Origin: a virus
Taxonomy: Duplodnaviria > Caudoviricetes
Strand: one strand, 5' to 3'
Length of the DNA stretch: 64,000 nucleotides
Virus record (IMG/VR): IMGVR_UViG_2791355224_000001
Location: 20,216-84,215 of that record
Below, piece by piece: positions 11,616 to 41,950 of the stretch. The translations under genes were made by a program, and so were the position numbers. Numbering within the stretch: the first letter of the stretch is position 1; each line of letters opens with the position of its first letter. Below the pieces are notes generated by a model. It was not told the DNA's origin. It saw only the letters and a program-made list of their open reading frames with translations, and searched no databases.

Positions 11616-12074
11616 ATCGCACACATAAACGAAGTTAAAGGGAAGCACTCGGAAATGACGGCTCGGCTCGCACTCATGTCTAACGGATGGACGGTAGCCA
11701 CAACGGACACGGACGAGTCGTTCGATATCGTGGCACGAGATCCGGTTAGCCGCGCATGGAAAACGTTCCAAGTTAAGACGATTAAGGTGCGGACAGACCG
11801 ACGCGGCGATCTCGTGGTTAACGGACGAAAAGGTAACGGAGAGCCGTATACGCTATCCGAGACTGATTACTTTATCGGTGTCATGGGATCGGAAGATGGC
11901 GGGTTGCCTACGGTCTACGTATTCGAGAACAACGAGCAATCTGAGTACTGGGCGACGGAGACAAGCGCCGAGCGACGCTGGGTTCGCTTGCCGATCGAGT
12001 TGGACCGTGCTACTTACGCGGTAAACGTTGGTGAAACGGAGTTGGCGGGACCGACGGATTATATCGCGGCTTAG
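11616..12074 (+). CDS. PD-(D/E)XK endonuclease (probable ATC start)
   Basis: KGKHSE..LALMSNGWTV...FDIV...FQVKT; the motif-I Glu lies upstream of ATG 11655. Confidence 0.7.
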   Translation: MAHINEVKGKHSEMTARLALMSNGWTVATTDTDESFDIVARDPVSRAWKTFQVKTIKVRTDRRGDLVVNGRKGNGEPYTLSETDYFIGVMGSEDGGLPTVYVFENNEQSEYWATETSAERRWVRLPIELDRATYAVNVGETELAGPTDYIAA

Positions 12075-12135
12075 TAACGGTAGCTACGCAATTCCAAATA
12101 AACGCGCCTACGAGCGCCCAAAGGAGACCGATTAA

Positions 12136-13377
12136 ATGGCGAAATTGAACGTAGTAATTCCGAATGTGGACGTAGAGGTAAGAGGCGAAGACGGTAAATC
12201 CGTTAAGTACCGCAAAGTTGACCGCAAGCCGCGGGCGGGCGATATCATAAAGTTTACTGCATATGCGACTTCATTCGTACATGAGGGAGCGTTCTACCTC
12301 GTTGATGAAATTGACGCGTGTGGTGACGCACAGATTACTGATGAAGACGGCGATAGTTACGATACGGCGGGGGACAGTTTTGATGTCTACGAAAAGGTAG
12401 CGGAGCAGTCGCAAATTGCGCGAATTCCTGAACGCCTGAAAGTCGGGGATTACGCGAAGGTAGTCGCAGACCAAAAAACCAGCGAGGACGATCCGATTTC
12501 ATCTAACGCGAGGGTCGGAGATATCGTCGAGGTTATCGAGATGGACTCGTCCGCTGTTCCGTATAGAGTACGAACAATCGTCGGGCATATCGTAGGCGGA
12601 ACAGCTTGGGCGCGCCCATTCGCACTCGTCCGAGCAACCGAAGCGGAAGTCGCCGCAGCTAAAGACGCGCTTGACCCACGCAATGAATTTGCAGTTGGCG
12701 ATAAGGTGCGGCTGGTTAGCGGAGGCGACAAGCACCCACTAAACGGATTTATGGACGGAGAGATCTACGAAGTTAAAGATCCCAAGTGTTCACTACACAG
12801 TGGCGAGAGAATCCGTATTACTAAGCCGACTGGCGGAGCAGGATACGCCAAGCCGGACCAACTCGAAAAGGTCAGCGCAGAGGAATTGGCGGAGATCGAA
12901 CGTAAGAAGCTTCTCGCACAGTTTGCTCCGGGCGATACGGTTAAGCTTACGGTCCCTGACGGAAAACGTCCTCGGTACAGTTGGGGCAGCGTAGAGAACG
13001 GAGACGTTGGAACGATACGTCGCGTAGAGGATACACGTGTCATTGTTGACTTTCCGGCGCAGTCAATTTGGAACGCAGATCCTTCGGAGTTAACGAAACT
13101 CTCTGCGGAAGAAGCTGCTCAGCACGAAGAGGAAGCGCGTTGGTCGAAGATCGGGCGTAAGGTGAACGAGTATAAGGCGGGCGATTTGACGGTTCTTCCG
13201 GGCTGCCTACACTTAGGCTTCGCAGAGGTGCTCCGCATAGAAGGCGATAGAATTGTCGTTAAATGGGCGGATAAAACCGGATATGGTACTTGTACGGACC
13301 GCGCGTCAAGCCACCGCCTGATCGTTCCGGTCGAACAGCGCTTTGACCGCACCGAGCCCGAAAAGAACGCAGCTTAA
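12136..13377 (+). CDS. Protein with tandem SH3/KOW-like beta-barrel repeats
   Basis: Repeated RAGDIIK / KVGDYAKV / AVGDKVRL / APGDTVKL / KAGD modules. Confidence 0.75.
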   Translation: MAKLNVVIPNVDVEVRGEDGKSVKYRKVDRKPRAGDIIKFTAYATSFVHEGAFYLVDEIDACGDAQITDEDGDSYDTAGDSFDVYEKVAEQSQIARIPERLKVGDYAKVVADQKTSEDDPISSNARVGDIVEVIEMDSSAVPYRVRTIVGHIVGGTAWARPFALVRATEAEVAAAKDALDPRNEFAVGDKVRLVSGGDKHPLNGFMDGEIYEVKDPKCSLHSGERIRITKPTGGAGYAKPDQLEKVSAEELAEIERKKLLAQFAPGDTVKLTVPDGKRPRYSWGSVENGDVGTIRRVEDTRVIVDFPAQSIWNADPSELTKLSAEEAAQHEEEARWSKIGRKVNEYKAGDLTVLPGCLHLGFAEVLRIEGDRIVVKWADKTGYGTCTDRASSHRLIVPVEQRFDRTEPEKNAA

Positions 13378-13398
13378 TAAACCGGGAGGTGGCGTACT

Positions 13399-16575: not shown

Positions 16576-16827
16576 ATGACAACGGGAAAAGTGATTGACT
16601 TAATTGATGCAGCAATTGAAGAGGCCGAGCATAATCCGGATATTGAGGGGGAGGACGTTCTCGTTCACGCGGTGAATGCGGTACGCGAGCGGTTTGGTAT
16701 TACTTGTAATTACGCTTATTGCGGCGGCTTCGATAGCGCAGGATACGACATTGACTGCTACGCGATCGCATTCGTCACGTCCAACGGAGAACTCGGAATA
16801 TACGATTATCAAATCGAAAGCTATTAG
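16576..16827 (+). CDS. Acidic hypothetical protein
   Basis: Abuts the previous stop; SD GAGGG. Confidence 0.7.
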   Translation: MTTGKVIDLIDAAIEEAEHNPDIEGEDVLVHAVNAVRERFGITCNYAYCGGFDSAGYDIDCYAIAFVTSNGELGIYDYQIESY

Positions 16828-16839
16828 GAGGCGGCCATC

Positions 16840-17892
16840 ATATCGCAATCAATCGCAGATAAACTCGCGCAGGACTTTACGCAATTCTTAAATCAATGGC
16901 ACTCCGCACCAGAAGTGTACGATGACGCGCTCGATGCGCAGATCCACAAGTGGTATTACGATTACCTAACGGACAAGTCTCGCAAGGTATGGCCTCCTCG
17001 CGGCATTCCGTACTTTTCTCCGTCAGCCGCCAATTCGGATGCTCGCGGGCTCTACGAAAAGATGCGCGGCGCCAAGAAGGAGCAGACGGAACGTCCACCG
17101 CATCAGGGACGCTGGGTGCGCCTGGGAACGTCAATCGGCGACATGATTCAGCGGGACGTTCTCTTTGCAGAGCAGCATTATGCCCGGCACATGGGCGAGA
17201 ATCCTCCATTCAAGTTCGAGCGTAACGGACTCGGCGAGCCGCTGTTTGAGGAGTTTGCGAAGGTATCGAAGATCGCGGAGCACGCCGGTCAGACGTTTGG
17301 ACTTTACGGCACGGGTGACGGTATTATGCGTGTTTATGTGCCGGAGTTGGGGCGTGAGATTCGCGTTGGGCTCGAAGTAAAATCGAAGCAGACTACGTAT
17401 TCGATGACGTCGGGCTTCTCCGCGCGTAAGGGGCCGAAGGAGGACCACGTGAAGCAGTGTATAACGTACTCGGCGATGTACGGAACGCCGTCCGATCCGC
17501 TTGATTACTACGTTATCCTCTACGTAAATGGCTCTAAGAAGGCGTGGGAGATGACGCCCGAGGACTTCGAAAAGAGCCCGGATATTCTCGCGTTCGGCCT
17601 ACACATTACGGACGAAATGCGCACGGAAGTCCTCGACCACTTCGCGGGAATTGTTGCGGCAGCCGAAGCGGGCGAGCCTCCGAAATTGGACATCGACAAG
17701 TGGACGTTCAACAATTTTAAGCAGGCGTGTGCCTTATCGCTATCGCCATCCGAGCTTGCGGAAATCGAACGCCAAGTCGCAGCCCTACAGCGGTCCAACC
17801 TCCCCGATCATAAAAAGCGTGGCCCAGCGCAAGCCCTAGCGGATATACATCGGATTAGAGCGGAACACGGAGCCGTGAAGGAGGCGGCCTGA
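16840..17892 (+). CDS. PD-(D/E)XK (RecB/Cas4-like) phage exonuclease (probable ATA/ATC start)
   Basis: FSPS, GTGDGIM, GLEVKSK, HVKQCITY motifs; AGGAGG at 16826-31 precedes in-frame ATC ATA. Confidence 0.75.
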   Translation: MSQSIADKLAQDFTQFLNQWHSAPEVYDDALDAQIHKWYYDYLTDKSRKVWPPRGIPYFSPSAANSDARGLYEKMRGAKKEQTERPPHQGRWVRLGTSIGDMIQRDVLFAEQHYARHMGENPPFKFERNGLGEPLFEEFAKVSKIAEHAGQTFGLYGTGDGIMRVYVPELGREIRVGLEVKSKQTTYSMTSGFSARKGPKEDHVKQCITYSAMYGTPSDPLDYYVILYVNGSKKAWEMTPEDFEKSPDILAFGLHITDEMRTEVLDHFAGIVAAAEAGEPPKLDIDKWTFNNFKQACALSLSPSELAEIERQVAALQRSNLPDHKKRGPAQALADIHRIRAEHGAVKEAA

Positions 17893-18168
17893 TTGACGTA
17901 CATTATCGAGTCCATTCGCACGCACGGCGGTACTCCGACTGATCGCGAAGCCCGGCGTAAGGGCCAGCGCGTAGAGATTCTGAACCTTAACGTAGGCCAG
18001 GCGCTCCTTCTCGTGTATCGCGACGATCACAATAAGATCCTGCAGACCTCTCGCGTTGAGAGCATCGCAGGGTACGACGTCCTTACGGTTAAGACGGCGA
18101 ACAGCGTATACACTTTTCGCAAAGGAGGCGTTAGCCCTGGCGGATCAATCGGCCACGAACCGAAGTAA
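17893..18168 (+). CDS. Hypothetical protein
   Basis: AAGGAGG SD, TTG start; TANSVYTF motif. Confidence 0.7.
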   Translation: MTYIIESIRTHGGTPTDREARRKGQRVEILNLNVGQALLLVYRDDHNKILQTSRVESIAGYDVLTVKTANSVYTFRKGGVSPGGSIGHEPK

Positions 18169-18715
18169 AGAACCGGCGTATCGCATACTAGGTTTAGACT
18201 TATCGTCTTCGCCCGGAGCTGCGGCGATCGAGGTGCGGAATAGAACTCCGTATCTCATCGCGGCCTCGTCCGTGGCTACAACGAAAGACGATACGGATGC
18301 CGTGCGGAATGTTGCGGTCGAGTCGTTTATCTCGCAATTCATTTACGAAAATAGGCCGTTCGATATCGTGGTTCGCGAGGACTTTACCAGCGGGCGGAAT
18401 AAACGGGCGACGCAGCTCGTATTCGGATCATGGGCGGCTGCTGACCGCGCACTACTGGCGTTCGGCTACCGTGCGGAAGACCTGAAGCCTGCGCTGAGCC
18501 CGACCAGCGTTAAGAAAATCGTAACCGGAAATGGAAAGGCGGAGAAGCCGGAAGTTGCGGCGGCTGTACGTAAGTGGCTTCGGTTGCCTAATGGTCCAGA
18601 CGGTAGTCCTTACAAGTTTCGAGCCGGATACGATGATAGCGACGCGTGCGCTGTAGCGCTGGCGTACTTGATTCGTGAGGGTCTAATAGATACGGAAGGA
18701 GTTGTTGCGGCGTGA
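18137..18715 (+). CDS. RuvC-like Holliday junction resolvase (probable CTG start)
   Basis: ILGLDLS, VVRED, VKKIVTGNGKAEK, DDSDACAVA; AAAGGAGG 8 nt before CTG 18137. Confidence 0.85.
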   Translation: MADQSATNRSKEPAYRILGLDLSSSPGAAAIEVRNRTPYLIAASSVATTKDDTDAVRNVAVESFISQFIYENRPFDIVVREDFTSGRNKRATQLVFGSWAAADRALLAFGYRAEDLKPALSPTSVKKIVTGNGKAEKPEVAAAVRKWLRLPNGPDGSPYKFRAGYDDSDACAVALAYLIREGLIDTEGVVAA

Positions 18716-21256: not shown

Positions 21257-21272
21257 AAAGAGGGCGAAAAAC

Positions 21273-21760: not shown

Positions 21761-22621
21761 TTGGCGCAATTAAGCGGAGTAAAGACGATAAGCAGTACGG
21801 AGATTGAGTACGGAGGTAAGCGGTACGTAAAGACGGAAGGGTTTGGCGAGCCCGGAGATATTGTACGGAGTGATTGGGATTATTCGTATCTACCGCAGGG
21901 GACGTTTTACCTCGTCGGCGCGGAAGGTAGTTTCGCTGACTTGGACGGTGACGTGTACGAAGTAGACACGGAGATGGACGATGAAATCACATTATTCCGC
22001 AAAGTCACCGGAAAAGACGGAAGAAAAGCGGAAGTTATTAATCGAGGAAGAGTCTATACAACGTATAAACGGTTTGCGGAGAAGCACGGATATCCGGACG
22101 CTGCGGTAAATAGCGATAGCACAGATAGCCGCAAGGCTATGAAAAACGGGGATATTGTCACGCTTCTGACGAGAGGAACCCATGAAAATCCTAGCTGGGG
22201 AACGCTATGGATCGTAGAGACTGCGGAAGGCGAGCGTTTTATCATCAACGAAGGAGGATTACGTATTCTTCCTTCTACTTCGGAAATCATCGCTCAAAAA
22301 CGTACCGAACTCGCGGCTCTAACCGCTGAGATCACGGCCCTCGAAACGCAACTTGCCGAGGAACAAGCGCTCAAAGTTGGCGACTGGGCGCGCGTTGTCA
22401 GCCGCACGTATAACGAAGAGTTCCATCACGGTGATATTGTTCGCGTAATTACTGTGGATAGCTCGGACATCCCTTATCAGGTCGAGTCAGCCGGAGGAAT
22501 GACGGATTGGGCTTGTAGCACCTCGCTCGAAAAGATCACGCCAGCCGATGCACGCGCAGCCCTTATCGCCAGCATAGACGAGTTGTTCGGCGGGGAGGAG
22601 GCGGTTGCATCAGCGGCTTAA
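21761..22621 (+). CDS. Protein with SH3/KOW-like modules and coiled coil
   Basis: LKVGDWARVV...GDIVRVITVDSSDIPYQV resembles a module of 12136-13377. Confidence 0.75.
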   Translation: MAQLSGVKTISSTEIEYGGKRYVKTEGFGEPGDIVRSDWDYSYLPQGTFYLVGAEGSFADLDGDVYEVDTEMDDEITLFRKVTGKDGRKAEVINRGRVYTTYKRFAEKHGYPDAAVNSDSTDSRKAMKNGDIVTLLTRGTHENPSWGTLWIVETAEGERFIINEGGLRILPSTSEIIAQKRTELAALTAEITALETQLAEEQALKVGDWARVVSRTYNEEFHHGDIVRVITVDSSDIPYQVESAGGMTDWACSTSLEKITPADARAALIASIDELFGGEEAVASAA

Positions 22622-23073
22622 TACACGTAGTAGTATCGCTTATTATCGCACTGTCCGGGATTAACGGAATTCCGCCTAATATGAACGTTAAGCCTGCGCA
22701 AGTATCTTCGGAGTCAACAGGCAAGGCTCCGAAGGCACAAACGCAGGTATCCGCTAAGTCTTCGCCAAAAGACGTGAAAAAGCGGACAGCAAAAATATAC
22801 GCGGTTACAGCGTACTCTGTCGGCGATGACTACACGCCAAGTACCGGCATTACCGCGTCGGGTAAACCGGTCGAAGAAGGCGTGACGGCCGCGTGTCCGA
22901 AGGAACTGCCGTTCGGGACTAAACTGCGGATTGAGGGCGTCGGCGATCGAGTATGTACGGACGGGGGAGGACGAATTAAAGGGCGTAAGATTGACGTTTA
23001 CATTCCGAAAGTTAAGGACGCCCTGATTTTCGGTAAGAAGAAGTTACGCGTGGAGATACGCGCCGGGGAGTAG
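22609..23073 (+). CDS. 3D-domain (MltA-like) cell-wall hydrolase with N-terminal signal/anchor (probable ATC start)
   Basis: VTAYS, GITASG, LPFGTK, DGGGRIKGRKIDVY; the hydrophobic leader LIHVVVSLIIALSG exists only if ATC 22609 is used. Confidence 0.8.
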   Translation: MSGLIHVVVSLIIALSGINGIPPNMNVKPAQVSSESTGKAPKAQTQVSAKSSPKDVKKRTAKIYAVTAYSVGDDYTPSTGITASGKPVEEGVTAACPKELPFGTKLRIEGVGDRVCTDGGGRIKGRKIDVYIPKVKDALIFGKKKLRVEIRAGE

Positions 23074-27869: not shown

Positions 27870-28114
27870 ATGAGTGTCTATGCCCAAGTTAAAAAATGTG
27901 AAGGTTGCTGTGCCCACGCGATGTGCCGCCGTAATCAAAAGCGGGGAACAATCAATGAGGACGGAGACCTCACGAAACTTATTCGCAAATATCAATCTAT
28001 GAAAAATTCAGAATAGAAACCGCATCTATATCGACGCTATTACGTGCGGACTTATTCACATAACGTAAAGCGCCCGATATCTGCGGAACTTACACGAAAA
28101 AGGAGCGGATTACT

Positions 28115-30370: not shown

Positions 30371-30481
30371 TTAATTTTTTAAAATGATAGTCCATTTACA
30401 GTAATATATAGGAAAAATAACCTGTGTCTATAGAACTAATTATGCTATATTAAGAAAAAATATGAATTAAAGGAGATTTTT

Positions 30482-31267
30482 ATGAAAAAGAAGTTAGCCT
30501 TACTTGTATTCTTTCTTTTAGTCTTAGCCTTACCGACCTCTATTGCTTCTGCTTCGACAATCGCAGTAGGTGGTAAAGCCTTCTCAAGCAGCAATGCTCC
30601 AGGGGTAAGTCCCGACTATGCTTTTGATGGTAAGTTTCTCACAAAAGAAGACCCTAATGTTGGGTTTTGGCAATCAGTACCCGGAGTGCAGACGAACGGG
30701 GTTGCTTTCATAGGATATGATTTTGGGAAGGGGAACGAAAAGAGTGTAGAGAGTATAGTTGTTCAACAACATCCGAGAGAAGGATTTTCCGTTTCAAGTG
30801 TGAAAGTGCAAAACTTGAAGGCTGACGGTACTTGGAATGATGTGGGGACATATGATGTTAAAATGTACGACACAACCACTCTTAAACTTCCAACAACTGA
30901 GAAGTCGCAGGCTTGGAGATTGCTAGCGAATTCAAACGTTTCTAGAGAGTGGGCGGTTGTTGAAGTAGAACTACAGGGACCAGCCTCAGTTGATCCACCG
31001 ACTAATCCAGAGCAACCGCCAGTTTCAGGAGAGCGCGCTCTATTAACAATCACAATGCTCAACGGCATGGAAAAAGAATACGACCTTTCTGCTCAAGAAG
31101 TTTCTGCATTTATTAACTGGTATGATGCGAAAGACGCTGGAAACGGTCCGGCAAAGTATGTATTCAACAAAACGTGGAATAAAGGTCCGTTCAGTAAGCG
31201 GACAGAGTACGTAATCTTCGATAAAATTCTTACGTTTGAGGTTAGTGAATACACGTTAAGTAAATAG
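30482..31267 (+). CDS. Secreted protein with discoidin (F5/8 type C, CBM32-like) domain
   Basis: Signal peptide, PDYAFDG, IGYDFG, VVEVEL; Pro linker; C-terminal EKEYDLS...FINWY domain. Confidence 0.8.
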   Translation: MKKKLALLVFFLLVLALPTSIASASTIAVGGKAFSSSNAPGVSPDYAFDGKFLTKEDPNVGFWQSVPGVQTNGVAFIGYDFGKGNEKSVESIVVQQHPREGFSVSSVKVQNLKADGTWNDVGTYDVKMYDTTTLKLPTTEKSQAWRLLANSNVSREWAVVEVELQGPASVDPPTNPEQPPVSGERALLTITMLNGMEKEYDLSAQEVSAFINWYDAKDAGNGPAKYVFNKTWNKGPFSKRTEYVIFDKILTFEVSEYTLSK

Positions 31268-31281
31268 GACAAAAAAAAAAG

Positions 31282-31309
31282 AAAGAGCCCCTACTAGCGG
31301 GCTCTTTTT
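31282..31309. terminator. Bidirectional intrinsic terminator
   Basis: AAAGAGCCC-loop-GGGCTCTTTT flanked by A and T tracts between convergent genes. Confidence 0.85.
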
Positions 31310-31472
31310 AATTTGCGTCTGTTTTCTCAACGATAAATAACGCTTCAATACTTACGCCGAGTGCCCGTGCGATCGCGAATAAGTGGGCGGCCTCGTGGCG
31401 GCTGTTTTTATCGAAACGGGAGATCGAACCTTGCGGCACACCGGACATTTGCGAAAGCTGTGTTTGAGTGAT
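31308..31472 (-). pseudogene. 5'-truncated XRE HTH gene
   Basis: ITQTQLSQMSGVPQGSISRFD...IARALGVSIEALF lacks the first helix; sequence turns AT-rich just upstream. Confidence 0.6.
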
Positions 31473-31567
31473 GTCGAATATTATAGTCACGCCGGCCAAT
31501 GGTTATATGGTAAAATAGAACATACTTTTCCAATTATTCATAATATAAATTAATAGGTGGGAATAAG

Positions 31568-32647
31568 ATGTTCAAATTAAATGCTGAGCATGGTCGTATG
31601 ATTGGCAAGGTAAAGAGTAAAGAAAACGTGACTAAATCAGCTTTAACTTCTCTTAGGTTAGCTTTAAAGTCTTATTTTAAGACCTACCAGGTTGCGTCAC
31701 AGAAGGGTATAATTAACGACTTATTAGTGGAAGAAAGCAACCCCTTTTATGATTTTAGTCAAAATAATATTGACTTATTTTGTGATAATACAGACTACCA
31801 AGAAGTATACCTACAATGTATATTTCATTTTCACCATTTCTTCGAGCTCCTACTAAAAGATGTGTTATCTAGTGTCCACCCTAAGCTCGCCTACAAAGTA
31901 AAACTTGACGGTGATAACTCTGCTTTAATTTTAGAAATTCTTAAGAACAAACAATCTAATGATCTGAGTAATGATAATACCGCAGAATTTCAGACATCTT
32001 TGAACCGAGTAATAAAACTAATGAATATTCAAGACGAAAATATTCCTATCGTATCTAAGGTTATTTGTGACAATAAGCAAACCCTAGTAGACCTGAATAC
32101 ACTAAGAAATCGAGTTTGGCATAAAGGATTGTATGTTCTTAGACTTAACGAGTTGGATCAATTTATATCTCAAAATATACTGCCTCTCGTTGTTAATTGC
32201 CTACAAGCTACAAACTATAATAATTTGGAAAATTATTGGAAATATAAAAAAGCTCCCTTAGACCCAATAACTGAGATAATTAATTCGGGACAAGGAGTCG
32301 TTGATTATGGACGCATTGCGTTTTATAAGGCGTATGGCCTAGCTTGTTATTCGATGCCTATTTGGAAATCTGATCTTGATGAATTTGAAAAAAAGGCAGA
32401 GGCTATTGTCCGTGCTATTCATGGCATGACTGTTGATTCCTGTTTTGTTTGTGGGAAAAATACTCTCCTTATTAGTACAGAAGCTGACTATAATTCTGAT
32501 GAATTTGGGGTTCCAGTAAGTATCTGGGTTAAGTCAACAGCCGCGGAGTGTCTGAATTGCTCACTGAGATTATTTCCTGATATAGGCGAACCGTGTTCTC
32601 ACGGTGTTGAATACGAGCAATTGTGGAGATTCGAGGATGTACTTTAA
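31568..32647 (+). CDS. HEPN-motif protein with C-terminal Zn ribbon (putative defence RNase)
   Basis: HHFFELLLK and RNRVWH (Rx4H); CFVC...CLNC; markedly AT-rich. Confidence 0.65.
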   Translation: MFKLNAEHGRMIGKVKSKENVTKSALTSLRLALKSYFKTYQVASQKGIINDLLVEESNPFYDFSQNNIDLFCDNTDYQEVYLQCIFHFHHFFELLLKDVLSSVHPKLAYKVKLDGDNSALILEILKNKQSNDLSNDNTAEFQTSLNRVIKLMNIQDENIPIVSKVICDNKQTLVDLNTLRNRVWHKGLYVLRLNELDQFISQNILPLVVNCLQATNYNNLENYWKYKKAPLDPITEIINSGQGVVDYGRIAFYKAYGLACYSMPIWKSDLDEFEKKAEAIVRAIHGMTVDSCFVCGKNTLLISTEADYNSDEFGVPVSIWVKSTAAECLNCSLRLFPDIGEPCSHGVEYEQLWRFEDVL

Positions 32648-32713
32648 GATACCCAACACTTACCGCCTCTATCCGTAGTAGCCACGCGCTATAATCGTAT
32701 AGAGGTGTTTTCT

Positions 32714-33577
32714 ATGTTTATATCCCCGATGTTACTCGAAACGGCAGCCGCTCCGTTCTCGGATTCGCGCTATATTTTCGAACCGAAAATTGACGGCCAC
32801 CGTTTAATATATTCGCAGGAGAGCGGCGTTGTCCGCCTATACACGCGCCATAATAACGACTGTACCCGGCAGTACCCGGAGATCGCCAACGCTGTATTCC
32901 CGCATGACATCGTTCTCGACGGAGAGATCGCGGTCTATGATCCGCAAACCAGCGTAGTCGACTTTGAGTCCGTGATGTCCCGCTTTCAGGCGCGTCGGGC
33001 CGATAAGATAACGCAGCTCAGCGCCCAGTTACCTGTTACGTTCGTTGTTTTCGACATCCTGCGGTACAAGGGCGAGGACTTGCGCCAATTACCGCTCATG
33101 CAGCGCAAGGAAATACTTGCGGGCTTATCGCTACCGAACGCTCATTTCGGCGTTGTTCCCTACGTGGAGGGAGCCGGAGAAGCGTTGTTTACGCAGATGC
33201 AGGCGCGATCGCTCGAAGGCATGGTCGCTAAGCGTACGGATAGCACGTACGTCAGCCGACGGTCGGCCGCATGGCAGAAGGTGATCAACTGGTCTTATGC
33301 CGACGTATGGCTGACCGGTTATAAGAAGGCGGAGTTCGGCTGGCTTGCGGCTGTGCAGGCGGATAATAGCGCGAAGATACGTCCGGCTGGCATTATCGAG
33401 CATGGCGCTAGCCCAACGCACAAGAAGGCGTTTTATGGCGTGGTGAAGCCGCTGATTACCGGAGAGGATCGCGAGTTTGTGTACGTGGAGCCGCGGATAA
33501 GAGCACGCGTGAAAATGCGAAATTGGACTCGCGCAGGGATGCTGCGGAGTCCGGTGTTTACGGAGTTTATTGTTTAA
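32714..33577 (+). CDS. ATP-dependent DNA ligase (LigD-ligase/SPbeta LigB-like)
   Basis: EPKIDGHR (KxDG), LDGEI, FDIL, EGMVAKR, OB-fold LRSP. Confidence 0.92.
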   Translation: MFISPMLLETAAAPFSDSRYIFEPKIDGHRLIYSQESGVVRLYTRHNNDCTRQYPEIANAVFPHDIVLDGEIAVYDPQTSVVDFESVMSRFQARRADKITQLSAQLPVTFVVFDILRYKGEDLRQLPLMQRKEILAGLSLPNAHFGVVPYVEGAGEALFTQMQARSLEGMVAKRTDSTYVSRRSAAWQKVINWSYADVWLTGYKKAEFGWLAAVQADNSAKIRPAGIIEHGASPTHKKAFYGVVKPLITGEDREFVYVEPRIRARVKMRNWTRAGMLRSPVFTEFIV

Positions 33578-34349
33578 TGCAACAGTTACAAAAAGAACGA
33601 CCAAACTTAGTCAATTCCCAATAAGTTTTCTTCAACGCAACGTCGTGGTTTGGGTTTGTCTCGTGTAAGTCCTCTTGAGCAAATTTAATGAAGCTGTGAT
33701 CATATAGACTATCGTATACTGCATCATCGGTAAACGTTACTTTGGTGTCAATATATAACAACCCAAGCCTAATGAGGTTGTCAATTGAAGCTCCGTACGC
33801 ACTGTGGTTACTCTCATTTAGATCCGGGAACGGAAAATAGTTTCTGTAAACTTCCATATATACATCAGAACTCTTGAACAACAGAATAGAGCCAGAGCCA
33901 ACTTTATTTCTATTCTCAAATAAAAAATTAAGAGCCTTTGCGTCCAAAGGAGAAAGTTGTTTTATTATCTCGACAAAGGCTGGATGAGCTTGTTCGGCAA
34001 GTGACTTTGTCACGGATTTAGCTATCAGTTTTGAGAACATTTTTTTCATTGTGTCACTCTCTACGTAATACTTGGAGGCTTCTAGAGCGGGGCCGACAAT
34101 ATTCAATTGAGGATCAATTACTTCCGCAGGTGGTATTTTTGAGACTTCCGATAATAAAAGATCCTTATAGCGCTCGATTTCAATTTGCTTTTTTATTTTA
34201 AGTTTTTGTAACGGGGAAAATACTAAATTAAAAATACTGCTTAGCCCTTCTCCAAGCTCTTTAGATGCTGGCTCAAGTGTATTTTTAGCCAATTGAGTCG
34301 CTGTTTCAATAGGCGACTTTGCTATATCTAATAATTTTTCTTCATCCAT
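33567..34349 (-). CDS. DUF4393 / Abi-alpha-like protein
   Basis: IVGPALEASKY, HPAFVEIIKQLSPLDA, SIDNLIRLGL, LTKFGRSFCNCC. Confidence 0.8.
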   Translation of the reverse strand: MDEEKLLDIAKSPIETATQLAKNTLEPASKELGEGLSSIFNLVFSPLQKLKIKKQIEIERYKDLLLSEVSKIPPAEVIDPQLNIVGPALEASKYYVESDTMKKMFSKLIAKSVTKSLAEQAHPAFVEIIKQLSPLDAKALNFLFENRNKVGSGSILLFKSSDVYMEVYRNYFPFPDLNESNHSAYGASIDNLIRLGLLYIDTKVTFTDDAVYDSLYDHSFIKFAQEDLHETNPNHDVALKKTYWELTKFGRSFCNCCIKQ

Positions 34350-34458
34350 TTATTTTCCTCCTTAGTCTATCGTCACAGCCATAAAAGTAATCCCCTAATA
34401 CAAGTTTTAATTCTACGACTACCACTTAATTCCTTCCGGGAAACATAGACCGCAGAAG

Positions 34459-34803
34459 CTACTCGCCAAAGCGGTCTATTTTTGCGTCCAAAACGTCATC
34501 CAGTGCAATCCACGTCAATTCTCCGTTACTCACCAGTTTCACCTCGCGCCGATACGTCAACACCGTCTTAACCACACCAGCCACCCAGCAATCTTCAATC
34601 ATGTCGAATAACCGCAACTTCACCGACACCTGCAGCGTTAGTGACCGGCTGATCGCAGCCTCGATCAGCTCGGACTCCTGCAGAATTAACTCAGGTTTGG
34701 TTCGCCGGGCCTGTGCTAGTTGCAGCCGGATTTCCGCCTCGCGGTGTTCTGGCATGATCATCCATGAATTCAATATACCGTTCCCTTTGAGTTTATCCTC
34801 CAT
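34459..34803 (-). CDS. YolD-like protein
   Basis: SWMIMPEHREA...KPEL; SOS-box-controlled operon. Confidence 0.85.
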   Translation of the reverse strand: MEDKLKGNGILNSWMIMPEHREAEIRLQLAQARRTKPELILQESELIEAAISRSLTLQVSVKLRLFDMIEDCWVAGVVKTVLTYRREVKLVSNGELTWIALDDVLDAKIDRFGE

Positions 34804-34848
34804 CGTGCTAGTACTCCGTCCAATAATCGGAGCTACTCTGTTGGGAGG

Positions 34849-35103
34849 TCACCGTTGCCTCGACTGTCCCGACAGACTGCGCTCCCACGCCTCCAAAATA
34901 ACGATTGTGTCTATCGCTGGCTTATCCGGCCAATATATGTACTCCGCAAGCATCAATTCGTTTAGCGCCGCTTCAATATCCGCAGGGCTGCGCCCGGTCA
35001 GCCGTTCGAGTTCCTTTTCCGTCGGCATCCGGCGTTGCTGCGACATGTAGTTGAAAAGAATCCGTAGTGTTTTACGTCCAAAATCGGATAACATCGTCAC
35101 CAC
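34849..35103 (-). CDS. Small winged-HTH protein (LexA DNA-binding-domain-like)
   Basis: RRMPTEKELERLTGRS...LNELMLAEYI. Confidence 0.7.
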   Translation of the reverse strand: MVTMLSDFGRKTLRILFNYMSQQRRMPTEKELERLTGRSPADIEAALNELMLAEYIYWPDKPAIDTIVILEAWERSLSGQSRQR

Positions 35104-35117
35104 TCCTTTGAACGTAA

Positions 35118-35147
35118 TTATACGGGAACATGCGTTCTGTTTTCAAG
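35118..35147 (-). promoter_or_regulatory. SigA promoter containing a LexA (SOS) box
   Basis: GAAC-ATGC-GTTC at 35126-35137 between TTGAAA and TATAAT on the minus strand. Confidence 0.8.
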
Positions 35148-35156
35148 CGGAAGTTT

Positions 35157-35351
35157 TTAGCTGGCGTATTTAAACGTACAGACATTCCGCATAAAGTACT
35201 CGCCGTGGACACGTACGGAAACCTCCGTAATGTCTTCAATTACTCCGCTGCCGACGAGTTCGTCCGCGATAAATATAACGATGGGCACGCACTCAAGTTG
35301 CGCGGTGTAAAAGTGGACATTTGCGGTAAGTTCGTTCATAAAACGGTTCAT
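35157..35351 (-). CDS. Hypothetical small beta-rich protein
   Basis: AAAGGA SD before ATG at 35351. Confidence 0.6.
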   Translation of the reverse strand: MNRFMNELTANVHFYTAQLECVPIVIFIADELVGSGVIEDITEVSVRVHGEYFMRNVCTFKYAS

Positions 35352-35482
35352 TTGCGTTGATCCTTTCGTTTGACTTGCGGATAACTTCGACAAATAGTGC
35401 CCATTTTCCTGCTAAAAGGAGGAAATAAGACCCAGTTATCGAATTATTAGGTATATATAACTGGAAAATATGGGGGATAAGT

Positions 35483-36082
35483 ATGGCAAGACGAAAGAGC
35501 AAGGCGAAACAGCAGGAAGAATTATTACAGGCATTACTTGGGGCGGCGTTCGTGTTCCCAGCGTTAGGCATTTTCTCCGCGACGGGATCGCTCGGATCGG
35601 CGGTAACGGCCGGTGTTTTATGCGCAGGTATCGTTATTGCGATCATGATTTACGTAAACGTGAAGAGAACGGAGCGGTTAAAACGTTCGGGGATTGCGGA
35701 AATTGACAAGATGGAAGGCGTACAATTCGAGCATTACCTCGGACACTTATTCCGATCGCAAGGGTATAAAGCGAAGGTAACGAGTGCTTCGGGCGATTAT
35801 GGCGCTGACTTGGTGCTGTCTAAAGATGGTAAACGGATCGTTGTGCAGGCCAAGCGCTACAGCAAAAACGTGGGCTTAAAAGCCGTCCAGGAGGTTCAGA
35901 GTGCCATTGCGCATTATAGGGCTTCCGCAGGCTGGGTCGTGACTAACCGGGATTACACGGACCAGGCGTATAAGCTTGCGAAATCCAATGGCGTACGTCT
36001 TATCGGTAGGGACGAATTGATCGAAATGCTGCTGCAGATGCGGGAAAAGACGGCCGCTACTAAAAAGAAAATTAGCGCATAA
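35483..36082 (+). CDS. Membrane-anchored Mrr-family restriction endonuclease
   Basis: Two TMs then FEHY, GDYGADLV, VQAKRY, VVTN (Mrr_cat). Confidence 0.88.
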   Translation: MARRKSKAKQQEELLQALLGAAFVFPALGIFSATGSLGSAVTAGVLCAGIVIAIMIYVNVKRTERLKRSGIAEIDKMEGVQFEHYLGHLFRSQGYKAKVTSASGDYGADLVLSKDGKRIVVQAKRYSKNVGLKAVQEVQSAIAHYRASAGWVVTNRDYTDQAYKLAKSNGVRLIGRDELIEMLLQMREKTAATKKKISA

Positions 36083-36084
36083 AT

Positions 36085-36127
36085 AAACGCCTACATGGCG
36101 GAAATAATCCGTTAAGTAGGCGTTTTT
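36085..36127. terminator. Bidirectional terminator between mrr-like gene and hicB
   Basis: AAACGCCTAC...GTAGGCGTTT inverted repeat. Confidence 0.75.
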
Positions 36128-36138
36128 CTTACGCATTT

Positions 36139-36570
36139 TTACCGAGTCTTTTTGCGCTCACTGACGCCGAGGTAGTCTTTAAGCGCGTCTTGAAGCACGT
36201 GTGAGTAGTTCACCTTATTCTGCGCGGCTAGATCGTCCAACCATTTCGGAATAGTCAGCGTCTTCTTAACGGCGCGGTCCGCCATCTTATCGCGAACAGG
36301 CGGCATCCAGACGTCGATCAATACGGCAGCCTGGCCGGGTTCGAGTGCGATGTCGGACGCTCGCGTTGGTTCCGGGATGATGTCGCCGTCTTCTTCCATT
36401 CCGAAGAGATGCAGCGAGAGACAGTCCTTCGCCATGAATAGCGCATCTTCGTCGTTATCGCCGCAGGTAAGTGCGCCCGGCAAGTCTGGAAACTCGATAG
36501 AGATACCGTCGTCTCCGTAATCGAAAACGGCAGGGAATACGTACCGGTCTTTTAACTGTTTATCGTACAT
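36139..36570 (-). CDS. hicB: HicB antitoxin
   Basis: FPDLPGALTCGD; C-terminal KKTLTIPKWL RHH. Confidence 0.95.
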   Translation of the reverse strand: MYDKQLKDRYVFPAVFDYGDDGISIEFPDLPGALTCGDNDEDALFMAKDCLSLHLFGMEEDGDIIPEPTRASDIALEPGQAAVLIDVWMPPVRDKMADRAVKKTLTIPKWLDDLAAQNKVNYSHVLQDALKDYLGVSERKKTR

Positions 36571-36598
36571 TTATAATATAAACCTCCTTAGGGAGGAG

Positions 36599-36790
36599 CT
36601 ATTTCAGCCCCGCCTGTTTGAGTATACTTGCTATTGTCTTCTTTGGTAAGTCTTTGTTGGGGTGAGGGATTGTAACTTTCCCCGGCTTAGTCGGATGTTT
36701 GTATTGGTAGTGGTCGCCAGTTGCTCGTATGTAGTACCATCCGTCCTCTTCAATCATTTTTATTAACTCCCTCGAAGAGTATCCCTTCAT
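36599..36790 (-). CDS. hicA: HicA toxin
   Basis: DGWY..RATGDHYQYKHPTKPGKVTIPHP...ILKQAGL. Confidence 0.95.
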   Translation of the reverse strand: MKGYSSRELIKMIEEDGWYYIRATGDHYQYKHPTKPGKVTIPHPNKDLPKKTIASILKQAGLK

Positions 36791-36813
36791 GGCATCACCG
36801 TCCTTATGGTTAA

Positions 36814-36869
36814 ATTATAATACGTATCATTATACGTGTCAAGATATTTATACGTCTTTTTATACGTGT
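36814..36869 (-). promoter_or_regulatory. hicAB promoter with palindromic operators
   Basis: Consensus TTGACA-17-TATAAT (36842-36814); ATACGTAT-N4-ATACGTGT across the spacer and -35, and a second related copy upstream. Confidence 0.85.
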
Positions 36870-36896
36870 TTTCCGTCCAGAGTTGTATTTCGTACG

Positions 36897-37027
36897 ATTT
36901 CAAAGCTATATAAGTATAAGAGCCGCTTTCATGCGGTCTTTTTTCGTTTAGAGGGTTACATTCTGCTCTATTTCAAAGCTATATAAGTATAAAGGGATTT
37001 TAAGGGCCGCCACACGTGCGGTCTTTT
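36897..37027 (+). repeat. Duplicated 23-bp element, each copy followed by a GCCGC...GCGGTCTTTT hairpin
   Basis: ATTTCAAAGCTATATAAGTATAA at 36897-36919 and 36970-36992. Confidence 0.85.
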
Positions 37028-37117
37028 CCCGTTCAGGGAACACGTAAGCATACGAATGATGCGGGTATACTCCGCACACCTTACGTTATTTCTAACAACA
37101 AATAGGAGGCGTTGCAT

Positions 37118-37276
37118 ATGGCCGGAAACACTGGCGAACTGGGCGTTAAAGTTAACGTAGATATTACGGATGCGATCCGCGGACTTAAAGCGGTACAACG
37201 TGAGGCGAAGAAAGCTGCGCAGGCATTGCGTGAGCTAGAGACGGCGCAGAAGGCGGTGTCAAATGGCGCAGAGTAG
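37118..37276 (+). CDS. 52-aa small phage protein
   Basis: AGGAGG SD; MAGNTGELGVKVNVDITDAIRGLKAVQREAKKAAQALRELE. Confidence 0.7.
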   Translation: MAGNTGELGVKVNVDITDAIRGLKAVQREAKKAAQALRELETAQKAVSNGAE

Positions 37277-38087
37277 ACGATTAGCAGATCCGGAAACGGG
37301 CGAACTTATATACGCGACTGTCCTTGATTATGGCGACCGTGTCATTACAGAATCCCAACGTAAGGGAGCCGCTGAACACTTCGAACGAGAAACGTTCAAA
37401 GGGCGCAATGCCGGCTTTACTTTTACGTCTATGGACGACATCCACTACGTAACCGAGCGACTCACAACGGCACAATGCGGATACCTCCTCGTGCTACAAT
37501 GCTACGTTGATTATGACGGCGGCCGCATCGTTAAGGCTCGTGGCGAATCGATGAATACTGCGGACATGCTTAACGTTCTGCAGCTCAAACGAAAGCGCAG
37601 CACGTTTTACGACTTCATGAGCGTTTGCTTAGAATCCGGCATCATAACAGAAGACGGACACGGCAGCTATTACGTTAATCCGCGTTATCACTTCCGAGGA
37701 GCTACGCAAAACCGCGCAGTTATCCGTACATACACGGCAAAGGTGCGCCAAGCTTACCGCGAAGTTAAGGCGGTTGATCTCGGCCTCATGTACAGGATGC
37801 TACCGTACGTCCACGTAAGTAATAACGCGCTCTGCGATAACCCAACGGAGCGCGATCCGAAGAAAATACGTTGGTTTAACGGAAAGGGCCTAGCGGCTGC
37901 GATCGGAGTCGACGAGAAGACGTTAACGCGTAGACTTCCGTATATGAAGTTCGGAGGCGAGTACGTTATTGCACGGACGTCTGTCGGTCCGCAGCGCATG
38001 TTCCAGTTCAATCCTAGCGTGTTCTACCGCGGTAATAAGACGCCGGACGAGTCGTTGATTGCGAAATTTAACGGACTGGTCGCTTAA
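37263..38087 (+). CDS. RepL-like tandem winged-helix protein
   Basis: Two repeats ending YYVNPRYHFRG and FQFNPSVFYRG; HTH segments. Confidence 0.55.
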   Translation: MAQSRRLADPETGELIYATVLDYGDRVITESQRKGAAEHFERETFKGRNAGFTFTSMDDIHYVTERLTTAQCGYLLVLQCYVDYDGGRIVKARGESMNTADMLNVLQLKRKRSTFYDFMSVCLESGIITEDGHGSYYVNPRYHFRGATQNRAVIRTYTAKVRQAYREVKAVDLGLMYRMLPYVHVSNNALCDNPTERDPKKIRWFNGKGLAAAIGVDEKTLTRRLPYMKFGGEYVIARTSVGPQRMFQFNPSVFYRGNKTPDESLIAKFNGLVA

Positions 38088-38138
38088 AAAGTGACCTTAT
38101 TCGGACAAATCAGCGAAAAAAGTGACTTTATTCGGACA
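38086..38138. repeat. 22-bp direct repeats (iteron-like)
   Basis: AAAAAGTGACYTTATTCGGACA at 38086-38107 and 38117-38138. Confidence 0.85.
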
Positions 38139-38702: not shown

Positions 38703-38703
38703 T

Positions 38704-38877: not shown

Positions 38878-38943
38878 AGCGCTGTTTGTCCGCAATGCTT
38901 GAGCGGATGAACGGCGCTCCTTTTATTACAGAAAGGAGGCGGA

Positions 38944-39348: not shown

Positions 39349-39889
39349 TTAGCGCATTATATGAAGCGATTCGTGGGCGGGGACTTCGGATGCTTTCGGA
39401 TCGCTCCGTTTTATCAACGAGAGGGTTCCGGCGCACGGCCCTCCGAAAACTTTCGAAATAGGCGGAATTGGCCGCCGGAATCAACGGATTATATGCGGAA
39501 TAGTACAAACGGTGGGCGATCGGCGGGCATGTTCGCAGACTCATTCGCACGAAAAACGTTGATGTGGCGCGGTTTTAGTAGGCGGGGCAGGGGCGGAGAC
39601 TACTACGCAAAATGTAGATTTTGTGAATATGTAGGTCGCGTTAATGCGATGAAGTGAGGGCCCCCAAGGCCCCCTCCGAAATCGGCCGTTTCTGGTCCGT
39701 CTATAGTCCGCGTATCAAAATTAACTTTTGACTTTGCGAGGGGCTGCGCACAATGCGTAAGCCTCTTGCTTATTATTGCCGTGAAATTAGCGGAGTTATC
39801 ACGAGAGGGGAACGATTACCCTCGGCCGTAGGTAATTGCGCTAATTTTACGTCTAAAATCGCTGAAACGCAGGTGAAAGGGATGATTGC

Positions 39890-40153
39890 ATGGTGGAGTT
39901 TACGGTAATTATCGCGGAAACAGCCGAAAAGGCTGCGGAGATTAACGCGCTTCTGCCGCCGAAGACGGACAAGTTTTGTATTCAAGCGTACTATTACGGT
40001 TATGCGTTTTGCGGACTTAGCTACAGAGGTACGCGTCCGACAACGGTACTATCACTCATCCCTCTGCGTGATGACGACGAGTGGGTGTGCCAATGCCTTC
40101 ACCAGATCGGACGCCATGACGGAAGTACGCGCTGGATCATTCCGGAAGCTTAA
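39890..40153 (+). CDS. Hypothetical protein
   Basis: AAAGGGA SD; stop directly before the TerL SD. Confidence 0.55.
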   Translation: MVEFTVIIAETAEKAAEINALLPPKTDKFCIQAYYYGYAFCGLSYRGTRPTTVLSLIPLRDDDEWVCQCLHQIGRHDGSTRWIIPEA

Positions 40154-40171
40154 AGAAAGGAGGCGATATCT

Positions 40172-41950
40172 ATCGCTTGGGTTAACGGTAAATGGCTAAC
40201 GCGTACTGAACGCGAAGCCAAAATTAACGAAATTGCTGCGTTACTGGACGTACTAGATGGCGTAGATATCGCCGCACTTAGTCCGGAAGACGCGGCCGAG
40301 ATCGACGCACAGCTGGCGGAGTACGAACGCCTAACGCGAATCCACCGCTGCGAAACGAACCTGATCGAGTTTGCGCTTGAGTATTTTAGCGAGGCGCGCA
40401 ATCCCGGCAATGACGGAAACTGGGACGGGTTCGATATTACGAAGTACGACGAGGCGCCGGAGTTCCACCGTGAAATCTGCGCTCTAATGGATGACGTAAG
40501 TAACGTCCATACCAACGACAAGGTAGCGGAGGCGGCGCCCCGTTCTCACGCTAAATCAACGTATTTATCAAAGGCGTTCCCGACACGCGAGATCGTGTAC
40601 CGCAAGCGCAAATACGAGATCATCATATCAGAGACACCAGCGGTAAGCTCAGCGAATCTCGATTGGATTGCGATGCAGCTTAAGAGTAACGCGAAGCTCC
40701 GGGCGGATTTCGGTCCGCTGTTGAGTCCGAAGCAGCAAGAGAATCCGAAGGATAACTCGTCCGAGTTTATTGCGTGGGAACCGCGCGATGATGGTACGAA
40801 AAAGATGCTGACGAAGGTTGAGGCGGCATCAACGGGTCAGGCGCTGCGAGGCCGGAACTGGAACGGCGTGCGGCCGGATCTTATTATCTGCGATGATCTT
40901 GAGGACATCAAGTCGAACGCCGCCACGCCAGAACTCCGCAAGAAATTGAAGGATTGGTTCTCGCAGACCGTCGTACCGCTCGGCGATCCGCGAGGAAAGA
41001 AGACGGCCTTTGTTTACATGGGAACAACGGTCCACCACGAAGCGCTGCTCGTTGACGTTCTATATAACCGGTCGGACTTCAAGAGTCGCGTGTATCGAGC
41101 TGTTATCGAATGGCCTGAGCGGATGGATCTTTGGGAAGCGTGCCGGCTCGTATATAAAGACCCCGACCGACCAAAAGAAGACCGCGTCAAGGATGCGCTC
41201 GCCCTCTACGAGTTGAATCGCGAAGAGATGGATCGCGGAGTGGTCGTATTGTGGCCGGAAGCGCAGCCGATATGGAAGTTGATGACGTGGAAGTGGGATA
41301 ACGGGTCGAAGGCGTTTAATACCGAGTACATGAACAACCCCGTTGATGAAGAGTCGATGATATTTAACCCGGAGAAATTCGTGTACTGGGATTCGGGGAT
41401 ATTTCGCGACTTGTTAACGCAGTATCCTCGCCCGACCGATGAGTTTGACGTTTATATGGGCGTAGACTTCGCGATGGGGAAGACACGGGGAGACTATTCC
41501 GCAATTGTAACGATCGCCCGCCATAAAGAAACCGGAACAAAATACGTTATTGATGCGTTCGGCGAACGGATAAAGCCGGACGCCTTTTTGCGTGTGATCG
41601 TCGAAAAGGCGCTCCGCTTTCAACCGAACGCGATAGCGGCCGAAGCGCAGGCAGCGCAGGAGTTCTTCGTTATGCAACTTAAGGACGCATTAAGAGCGAA
41701 AGGCTATCCCGGCCACACGCGAGTTAAAGAGATACACCAAAGATCGCGTAAGGACCTGCGGATCGAGGCGCTCATGCCAGATATAGAGAGCGGAGCAATT
41801 CAGTTTTCGCGGAAACATTCGCTGTTGCTTGAGCAGTTCGAGATGTACCCGGCTGGCTCTCATGACGATTTGCCGGACGCATTAGAGATGGCAGTAAGTA
41901 TCGCAAAGATTGGGCGGAAGAGAATAAGAGAGAAGCCTAATTGGTTGTGA
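40172..41950 (+). CDS. Terminase large subunit (probable ATC start)
   Basis: APRSHAKST Walker A, RPDLIICDDLE Walker B, GVDFA and HDDLPDA nuclease motifs; frame open from 40154. Confidence 0.92.
   Translation: MAWVNGKWLTRTEREAKINEIAALLDVLDGVDIAALSPEDAAEIDAQLAEYERLTRIHRCETNLIEFALEYFSEARNPGNDGNWDGFDITKYDEAPEFHREICALMDDVSNVHTNDKVAEAAPRSHAKSTYLSKAFPTREIVYRKRKYEIIISETPAVSSANLDWIAMQLKSNAKLRADFGPLLSPKQQENPKDNSSEFIAWEPRDDGTKKMLTKVEAASTGQALRGRNWNGVRPDLIICDDLEDIKSNAATPELRKKLKDWFSQTVVPLGDPRGKKTAFVYMGTTVHHEALLVDVLYNRSDFKSRVYRAVIEWPERMDLWEACRLVYKDPDRPKEDRVKDALALYELNREEMDRGVVVLWPEAQPIWKLMTWKWDNGSKAFNTEYMNNPVDEESMIFNPEKFVYWDSGIFRDLLTQYPRPTDEFDVYMGVDFAMGKTRGDYSAIVTIARHKETGTKYVIDAFGERIKPDAFLRVIVEKALRFQPNAIAAEAQAAQEFFVMQLKDALRAKGYPGHTRVKEIHQRSRKDLRIEALMPDIESGAIQFSRKHSLLLEQFEMYPAGSHDDLPDALEMAVSIAKIGRKRIREKPNWL

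Follow-up and report, generated by a model that had tools for sequence, protein, structure and literature searches.

Initiation factor 3 (IF3) discriminates against near-cognate start codons, and the infC and pcnB genes of Escherichia coli, both of which start with AUU, are limited in their expression by this inefficient codon and by the discrimination of IF3 against it. In phages, ATT, ATA, and CTG have been accepted sporadically as gene starts in individual annotations. The present analysis concerns the start codons of a 64,000-nt stretch of viral DNA (positions 20,216 to 84,215 of IMG/VR record IMGVR_UViG_2791355224_000001; this whole stretch is called the window), which corresponds to positions 1897034-1961033 of contig C4 in the host genome (5.67 Mb, 49% G+C) and is a prophage of a widespread Bacillales siphovirus lineage. 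The closest described cases are those of Staphylococcus aureus, for which the excerpted text of a recent study reports cvfC1 (AUU), ccpN (AUA), citZ (AUA), and infC (AUA), each with an extended Shine-Dalgarno (SD) sequence (Nat Commun 2026, PMC13009471). In the same excerpts, retapamulin ribosome profiling yielded four non-canonical starts genome-wide, all with extended SDs, and reporters with AUU or AUA reached about 10% of the AUG level and up to 30% in rich medium (PMC13009471). According to an excerpt of another study, mRNAs with non-AUG starts are especially sensitive in vitro to nutrient limitation and ppGpp (PMC5499595). A literature search that did not cover supplementary start-site tables returned no description of recurrent or conserved non-canonical starts in phages. 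In the excerpted text of a paper on 48 Paenibacillus larvae phage genomes, starts were chosen by Glimmer/GeneMark together with an SD score, and the terms "non-canonical" and "CTG" are absent from that text.

It was concluded, with a probability of roughly 80%, that at least seven genes of this prophage use genuine near-cognate start codons, which are conserved in the lineage and keep enzymes and regulators at low output. Sequence comparison indicates that the near-cognate codons mark the N-termini of these proteins and are placed behind working SDs. The seven confirmed genes, out of approximately 85-90 in the prophage (~9%, about one in eleven), are the following.

Large terminase (TerL): 40156-41950, plus strand; SD AAAGGAGG at 40156-40163, 8-nt spacer, start ATC 40172, stop 41948-41950, 592 amino acids (aa)
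Cas4/RecB-like exonuclease: 16826-17892, plus strand; SD AGGAGG at 16826-16831, start ATA 16840 (8-nt spacer) or ATC 16837 (5-nt spacer)
RuvC-like resolvase: 18121-18715, plus strand; SD AAAGGAGG at 18121-18128, start CTG 18137, 192 aa
3D-domain wall hydrolase with a hydrophobic leader: 22596-23073, plus strand; SD AGGAGG at 22596-22601, start ATC 22609, 154 aa
N6 DNA methyltransferase: 26065-27408, plus strand; SD GGGAGG at 26065-26070, start ATC 26080, with ATG 26125 lying 15 codons on
Small sigma-70 region-4 factor: 28098-28513, plus strand; SD AAAAAGGAG, 9-nt spacer, start ATC 28115, 132 aa
PD-(D/E)XK-fold nuclease-like protein: 11601-12074, plus strand; weak SD AAGGGAAG at 11601-11608, start ATC 11616, 152 aa

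Six of these starts had been proposed in an earlier note on the same DNA, and every coordinate, SD string, and spacing given there was present in the window. The methyltransferase start, ATC 26080, is a seventh site that was absent from the earlier note. The seven near-cognate starts have generally strong and often extended SDs, with spacers of 7-9 nt and SD duplexes of -9.7 to -19.0 kcal/mol with the 3' end of the host 16S rRNA (GGATCACCTCCTTTCT, seven copies). An SD-centred scan was performed for any ATG, GTG, or TTG that opens an open reading frame (ORF) of at least 40 aa at 4-10 nt from the SD in any frame. No such codon was found for the six SDs, in agreement with the claim that none lies at a usable distance from them. 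The first canonical codons in frame had no SD in the case of TerL, the exonuclease, RuvC (TTG 18056, -0.4 kcal/mol), and the sigma factor (-1.6 to +1.9 kcal/mol over these four), and the corresponding duplexes were -3.5 kcal/mol for the 3D hydrolase and -5.9 kcal/mol for the nuclease-like protein. In addition, every ORF was subjected to a flagging rule, under which the best near-cognate SD was at or below -9 kcal/mol and the best canonical SD above -8 kcal/mol. The rule picked the reported sites, with the sigma factor falling narrowly short (-8.9 kcal/mol, short anti-SD), and additionally picked ATC 26080, ATT 199, and CTG 24842 in the window.

The window is syntenic with the Halcyone-like phages of P. 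larvae, the Bacillus phages 268TH007/268TH002, phi18-2, and KLEB27-1, and Sporosarcina phage Lietuvens, and also with the more distant Bacillus phage Mgbh1. The sites were aligned codon for codon with those of eight GenBank phages. In all seven genes, the codon other than ATG, GTG, or TTG was found to be the N-terminus, as the aligned position in relatives holds either a canonical start or the first homologous residue. The alignment of homologous genes, which had been suggested as a check, thus placed ATG, GTG, TTG, or a near-cognate codon at the same position; the near-cognate codon itself was conserved in orthologues of TerL, the exonuclease, RuvC, the 3D hydrolase, the methyltransferase, and the sigma factor, and not in those of the nuclease-like protein. 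Single related IMG/VR contigs, whose names were collated by hand, carried 2-4 near-cognate starts among the 3-5 families present; one of them combined TerL with ATC, RuvC with ATA, the exonuclease with ATT, and the sigma factor with ATC.

These alignments bear directly on the explanation that the downstream ATG or GTG codons are the true starts and the upstream stretches untranslated, or that the ATC codons reflect sequencing error or decay, which is regarded as extremely improbable. Downstream starts are assumed by gene callers and by most GenBank records, and the truncation by gene callers that the earlier note had foreseen was borne out. The window's database entry for the nuclease-like protein has 139 aa and begins at ATG 11655. 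In GenBank, TerL is annotated with 478 aa in 268TH007 and from a TTG without an SD in phi18-2, RuvC has 76 aa in Tripp and 102 aa in C7Cdelta, the exonuclease is 16 codons short in Halcyone and 53 codons short in Tripp, and the 3D protein of Mgbh1 and the sigma factor of phi18-2 are 28 and 26 codons short, respectively. However, canonical codons in relatives stand at exactly the aligned position, the downstream codons are without SDs, and the near-cognate codons in question are found again in over 100 independent contigs. Moreover, the extensions are conserved as protein and contain the RuvC Asp, the nuclease helix, and signal-like leaders. Isolated decay or error is contradicted by the conservation of the non-canonical codons in relatives.

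TerL provided the largest set of relatives. The start at ATC 40172 adds 105 codons to the protein, ATG 40487 being residue 106, and the duplex energies agree with the previous claim that this ATG has no SD. The protein matches PHROG 38 over residues 27-589 (E 3.9e-91), a match that begins well upstream of ATG 40487, and Pfam Terminase_6C over residues 429-575. ATC 40172 aligns with GTG in Lietuvens and Scottie, with ATG in Tripp, and with ATC in 268TH007 and phi18-2, and (A)GGAGG precedes each of these codons by 7-8 nt. Among 80 TerL loci in IMG/VR, 9 were excluded because the contig end cut off the N-terminus. The aligned codon in the remaining 71 was ATC in 53, ATA in 2, ATT in 1, ATG in 10, TTG in 3, and GTG in 2, and their SD duplexes ranged from -12 to -19.5 kcal/mol except in two ATG cases.

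A TerL alignment and tree were constructed from 76 genes, with one 424-aa fragment left out; the start was near-cognate in 58 of these (ATC 55, ATA 2, ATT 1). At 18 conserved internal Ile columns, ATC accounted for 557 of 1210 codons (46%), and the highest single column reached 89%, as compared with 55 of 58 in the start column. In the tree, which was computed by FastTree on the proteins with the first residue removed and was rooted at the midpoint, ATC occurred on both sides of the root, and the label changed between near-cognate and canonical nine times, at least six of these changes being forced by well-supported branches. The tree and the Ile-column pattern together indicate that ATC at this start is old and stable and that canonical codons have been repeatedly exchanged with it.

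The initiation region of TerL also differed in its predicted RNA structure.

Small hairpin in the TerL initiation region: 40161-40178, plus strand; the spacer GCGAU pairs with AUC and with GC of codon 2

The 100-nt context (40112-40211) folds with a z of -3.47, and the hairpin is nested there in a longer helix, the 5' arm of which is formed by the last part of the upstream ORF; the other seven initiation regions were unremarkable (z -0.42 to +0.70). Pairing of all three start bases with the spacer was seen in 50 of 59 near-cognate relatives and in 1 of 18 canonical ones. The pairing is kept by ATT and lost by ATA, and in one ATG/GTG clade another spacer sequence is paired with UG-GCG-U. The hairpin may be a small switch that is opened by extended SD pairing, which would explain the preference for ATC; alternatively, it may be a side effect of the extended SD, since GAU is the segment of that SD which is complementary to the 16S rRNA (...GAUCACCUCC). 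The SDs of the window phage and its relatives often read GGAGGCG(A/G)T, which is the 16S complement GGAGGTGAT with C replacing T.

For the exonuclease, which matches PHROG 1706, two starts had been offered, of which ATA 16840 is the one aligned by relatives, and ATC 16837 is not; three P. larvae phages have ATC at the position of ATA 16840. The codons at 24 IMG/VR loci were ATT (14), CTG (5), ATC (2), ATA (1), and TTG (2), so that 22 of 24 were near-cognate. In 21 of the 24, the stretch from the frame opening to the fifth codon after the beginning of homology was free of canonical codons. A TAA directly abuts the ATT or CTG in many relatives, and both the open frame and the homology begin there.

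The RuvC-like protein matches its Pfam profile with 31.5 bits (cut-off 22.2) over residues 17-176 and profile positions 1-147. The Asp of its GLD motif, which we take to be catalytic, is residue 21 and thus lies upstream of GTG 18233 (residue 33). In three P. larvae phages, GGAGGTGA is followed by CTG two codons past the frame opening. The 23 IMG/VR loci carried CTG (5), ATC (5), ATA (2), ATT (1), ATG (5), TTG (4), or GTG (1), and 13 were therefore near-cognate; the SD was weak at one CTG, and an ATG lay two codons upstream of one ATT.

The ATC start of the 3D hydrolase had been said to restore a hydrophobic leader, and the same arrangement was found before the leaders of its relatives. The SD and ATC are repeated in 268TH007, phi18-2, KLEB27-1, and Mgbh1, and KLEB27-1 has an ATG three codons later. 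No 3D relatives were obtained by protein query of IMG/VR or of genome contigs. From 401 genomes of the host family, 30 3D loci were collected, of which the 16 with open frames below approximately 220 aa were used; the copy in the window itself and 13 chromosomal ones of approximately 387 aa were left out, and one locus (L174) gave no candidate. Among the 15 small prophage copies evaluated, five had ATC or ATT with a strong SD right before the hydrophobic leader, one was ambiguous, and nine had ATG or TTG.

The methyltransferase belongs to PHROG 3820, and its 17 IMG/VR relatives start with ATC (7), CTG (1), ATG (5), or TTG (4), giving 8 near-cognate starts; the codon in 268TH007 is ATA. The 15-codon extension is conserved as protein, with Arg codons exchanged among CGC, CGT, and AGA and among AGA, CGA, and CGC. 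The sigma factor contains Sigma70_r4 and matches PHROG 3512 over residues 2-121. ATC 28115 aligns with TTG in Halcyone and C7Cdelta, ATG in Tripp and 268TH007, and ATA in phi18-2, and 10 IMG/VR loci had ATC (5), ATG (4), or GTG (1). A second, full-length phage sigma factor at 1459-2142 starts with ATG behind a strong SD.

For the nuclease-like protein, the codon aligned with ATC 11616 is TTG in Halcyone, Tripp, and C7Cdelta and ATG in 268TH007, phi18-2, KLEB27-1, and Mgbh1, which makes seven of the eight phages, and Lietuvens differs. M stands at this column as the first residue in 7 of 18 database homologues. The 152-aa protein has no Pfam match. Its AlphaFold2 model (pLDDT 80.9) gave I-Ssp6803I as the top Foldseek hit (E 5.5e-6), followed by Hjc and PvuII, and D37 and Q52-x-K54 are invariant. 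The model indicates a restriction-endonuclease-like fold with a conserved D...(D/E/Q)xK motif, and nuclease activity is predicted. A start at ATG 11655, residue 14, would remove half of the predicted helix 5-22. Five nuclease homologues called from farther upstream (P0005, P0012, P0013, P0014, and P0027) have I, T, or L at the initial-M column, which hints at further non-canonical starts in this family, possibly including ACG.

The position of upstream ORFs at these sites was considered in two respects. Stop readthrough or fusion with an upstream ORF was evaluated for TerL (39890-40153), the exonuclease (16576-16827), and the nuclease (10788-11579), where an upstream ORF lies in the same frame with a single stop between; it was rejected because relatives exist without an upstream ORF before TerL and because the distances to the frame opening are variable. 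Initiation could also occur mainly by termination-reinitiation from the upstream ORF rather than by fresh 30S binding, and several features are consistent with this. TAA abuts ATT or CTG in most relatives of the exonuclease. In the window, the distance from the end of the upstream ORF to the start is 9 nt for the exonuclease, 18 nt for TerL, and 36 nt for the nuclease, the upstream ORF overlaps the start of RuvC, the 3D hydrolase, and the methyltransferase, and the TerL site lies in a stable helix formed with the upstream ORF end. However, in 268TH007, phi18-2, and Lietuvens, what precedes TerL is non-coding DNA or an integrase gene on the opposite strand, and an SD with ATC or GTG is present nonetheless, the sigma gene is preceded by a 98-nt gap, and every site has its own SD at a working distance. 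Reinitiation as the main route is therefore considered quite unlikely.

Of the further sites in the window, CTG 24842 was rejected, as its SD is shared with an out-of-frame ATG from which a 72-aa ORF runs. ATT 22265, ATC 25620, CTG 46013, and others that came from the SD-centred scan lie inside longer ORFs with good canonical starts and were treated as chance. One additional site was retained as a candidate.

Candidate start ATT 199: 187-477, plus strand; SD AGGAGG at 187-192, 6-nt spacer, SD duplex -15.8 kcal/mol, 92-aa ORF

No homologue of this ORF was found in 12 phage loci, IMG/VR, or the protein database, and thus ATT 199 is an unverified candidate only. In the relatives, the rule flagged an ATA before the gene for the ribonucleotide reductase alpha subunit in Halcyone (L005:12598) and C7Cdelta (L009:37371) and a CTG 42 codons before the annotated portal start of Tripp (L007:3131), with SDs of -12.7 to -17.4 kcal/mol.

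The frequency of such sites was compared with that in the host, for which 4563 ORFs of at least 100 aa outside the window served as background. ATC was flagged at 6 of 132 codons in the window versus 48 of 9785 in the host ORFs (Fisher p 7.6e-5), and near-cognate codons in the host were flagged at 4.1-5.0 per 1000 codons, the same as any other codon. A stricter threshold left 16 near-cognate host candidates, among which was infC. The host infC gene (C4:1321040, locus L093) has GGAGGTG, 8 nt, and ATC, followed by SKEHLINDEIR, and its Pfam IF3_N match begins six codons past the ATC; a second IF3-like gene of the host (C4:5152927-5153133, minus strand) starts with ATG. The host thus has ATC at infC, for which E. 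coli has AUU, and makes little use of such codons elsewhere.

The clustering of 7-8 such genes in one genome, in which many proteins have no assigned function, would be compatible with a phage or host factor that relaxes start-codon fidelity during infection and makes these codons efficient, and a phage factor of this kind had been suggested previously. No such factor was recovered by searches for tRNAs, initiator tRNAs, and PHROG matches: the window contains no tRNA, the four host initiator tRNAs have the ordinary CAU anticodon, the host tRNA-Ile is ordinary with no special initiator found, and no translation-related PHROG was present among 70 window proteins. The trait also spans phages of Paenibacillus, Bacillus, and Sporosarcina. 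A relaxing factor is accordingly judged very improbable.

With respect to their place in the prophage, replication and nucleotide-metabolism genes occupy approximately 1-30 kb of the window, and the small terminase (38944) and large terminase (40172) are followed by head and tail genes through the window end. The head, tail, and lysis genes at 42-64 kb yielded no flagged site, and none of the flagged genes is structural. Between the two parts lies an accessory island (30000-38000) of lower G+C content (42-49%), which contains the following genes.

ATP-dependent ligase-like gene: 32705-33577
Restriction-endonuclease-like gene: 35483-36082
HicA/HicB-like pair: 36142-36790, minus strand

Several observations weigh against the interpretation that the near-cognate starts are conserved in order to limit output. 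The near-cognate genes do not have stronger SDs than 42 canonical window genes (median -12.1 versus -12.5 kcal/mol, p 0.24), so that nothing shows compensation or a special class of site; among the TerL relatives, the difference was slight (-17.7 versus -16.0 kcal/mol, p 0.02, not corrected for kinship). The relatives are kin, and the counts are therefore not independent events. Translation at these codons rests, in these phages, on comparison of the sequences. The ATC of the nuclease-like protein was found in the window only, the single IMG/VR locus having ATG. In Tripp, the methyltransferase start (L007:48287), which lies behind GAAAGGGGAG and 15 codons upstream of the annotated ATG, is GTA and hence not a classical near-cognate codon. 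Finally, RuvC, the methyltransferase, and the sigma factor have canonical starts in about half of their relatives, as would be expected from near-neutral drift among usable codons.

The last three points, together with the mixed states of RuvC (13 near-cognate, 10 canonical), the methyltransferase (8 and 9), and the sigma factor (5 and 5) and the six to nine or more switches in TerL, are those expected if the starts are genuine without regulatory meaning, the start-codon identity of low-demand genes being weakly selected behind strong extended SDs in Firmicutes and drifting among ATG, GTG, TTG, ATC, ATT, ATA, and CTG. Against such drift, 55 of 58 Ile-type TerL starts are ATC as opposed to 46% of the internal Ile codons, the exonuclease is near-cognate in 22 of 24 relatives, and such starts are not comparably frequent in the host genome, although it is served by the same ribosomes. 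Drift is thus possible, although it is placed on the unlikely side, and conserved starts of low output are preferred.

Under this preferred interpretation, the initiator fMet-tRNA would read ATC, ATA, and CTG poorly, as expected from established initiation biology, and the output would be about tenfold below that of AUG, judging from the S. aureus reporters. The lineage would keep these weak starts, with ATC for TerL foremost, and the proposed reason is that long polycistronic transcripts need deliver only small quantities of the encoded enzymes and regulators (terminase, exonuclease, resolvase, nuclease, methyltransferase, sigma factor, and wall hydrolase). Throttling of the near-cognate genes is a reasonable and plausible extrapolation from S. 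aureus. Since the host infC also starts with ATC, we infer that the phage genes should respond to IF3 activity in the way infC does. The reason offered in the earlier note, that hazardous proteins are throttled at initiation, gains little support: it fits only four of the seven genes, as the methyltransferase, sigma factor, and 3D hydrolase cut no DNA, the restriction-like nuclease and HicA-like toxin of the same prophage have ATG with an SD, and many relatives have canonical starts in the same genes.

A further-reaching scheme may be envisaged, in which the near-cognate starts form a translational regulon or timer that reads host initiation fidelity through IF3, with the TerL hairpin as a second switch. 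The DNA-processing enzymes, sigma factor, and terminase would be kept low while IF3 is ample and would rise once IF3 per ribosome drops, either late in infection or with the growth state. In TerL, the spacer would pair with AUC until extended SD binding to the 16S rRNA opens the hairpin, and the need to keep this pairing would explain ATC over ATT or ATA. This scheme is put forward tentatively and is considered doubtful.

In terms of consequences, near-cognate initiation, of which only a few bacterial examples are known, appears here as a conserved design feature of a phage lineage, in which the large terminase is affected in most relatives. In public records and automatic calls, the genes for TerL, the exonuclease, RuvC, the methyltransferase, the sigma factor, and the 3D hydrolase are systematically shortened or given a wrong start, and in some of them catalytic residues or signal-like leaders are missing as a result; TerL serves as a standard marker when phages are classified or their packaging mode is predicted. 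The lineage also offers a natural series in which one gene occurs with ATC, ATT, ATA, CTG, TTG, GTG, or ATG and with which the effect of the start codon on protein ratios in polycistronic operons could be measured in Bacillus subtilis phages that are easy to handle. The use of IF3-dependent start-codon discrimination by phages also becomes a directly testable question.

In comparison with known systems, the sites differ from the sporadic non-canonical starts in phage annotations by their lineage-wide, gene-specific, and conserved use, as exemplified by ATC for TerL. They resemble infC and pcnB of E. coli in having a codon of the AUN/CUG class behind an SD, in its conservation in orthologues, and in a presumed lower output. 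Unlike these single chromosomal genes, however, 7-8 genes of one phage are concerned, with the same families recurring across the lineage, and unlike E. coli infC, no autoregulatory loop is evident in the phage. With the S. aureus sites, as far as the excerpted report describes them, they share Firmicute ribosomes, a strong or extended SD near the start, and a conserved non-canonical codon. AUC is dominant in the phage and absent from the S. aureus cases given in those excerpts (PMC13009471), and in place of the four non-canonical starts per genome reported there, such starts account for ~9% of the genes of one prophage.

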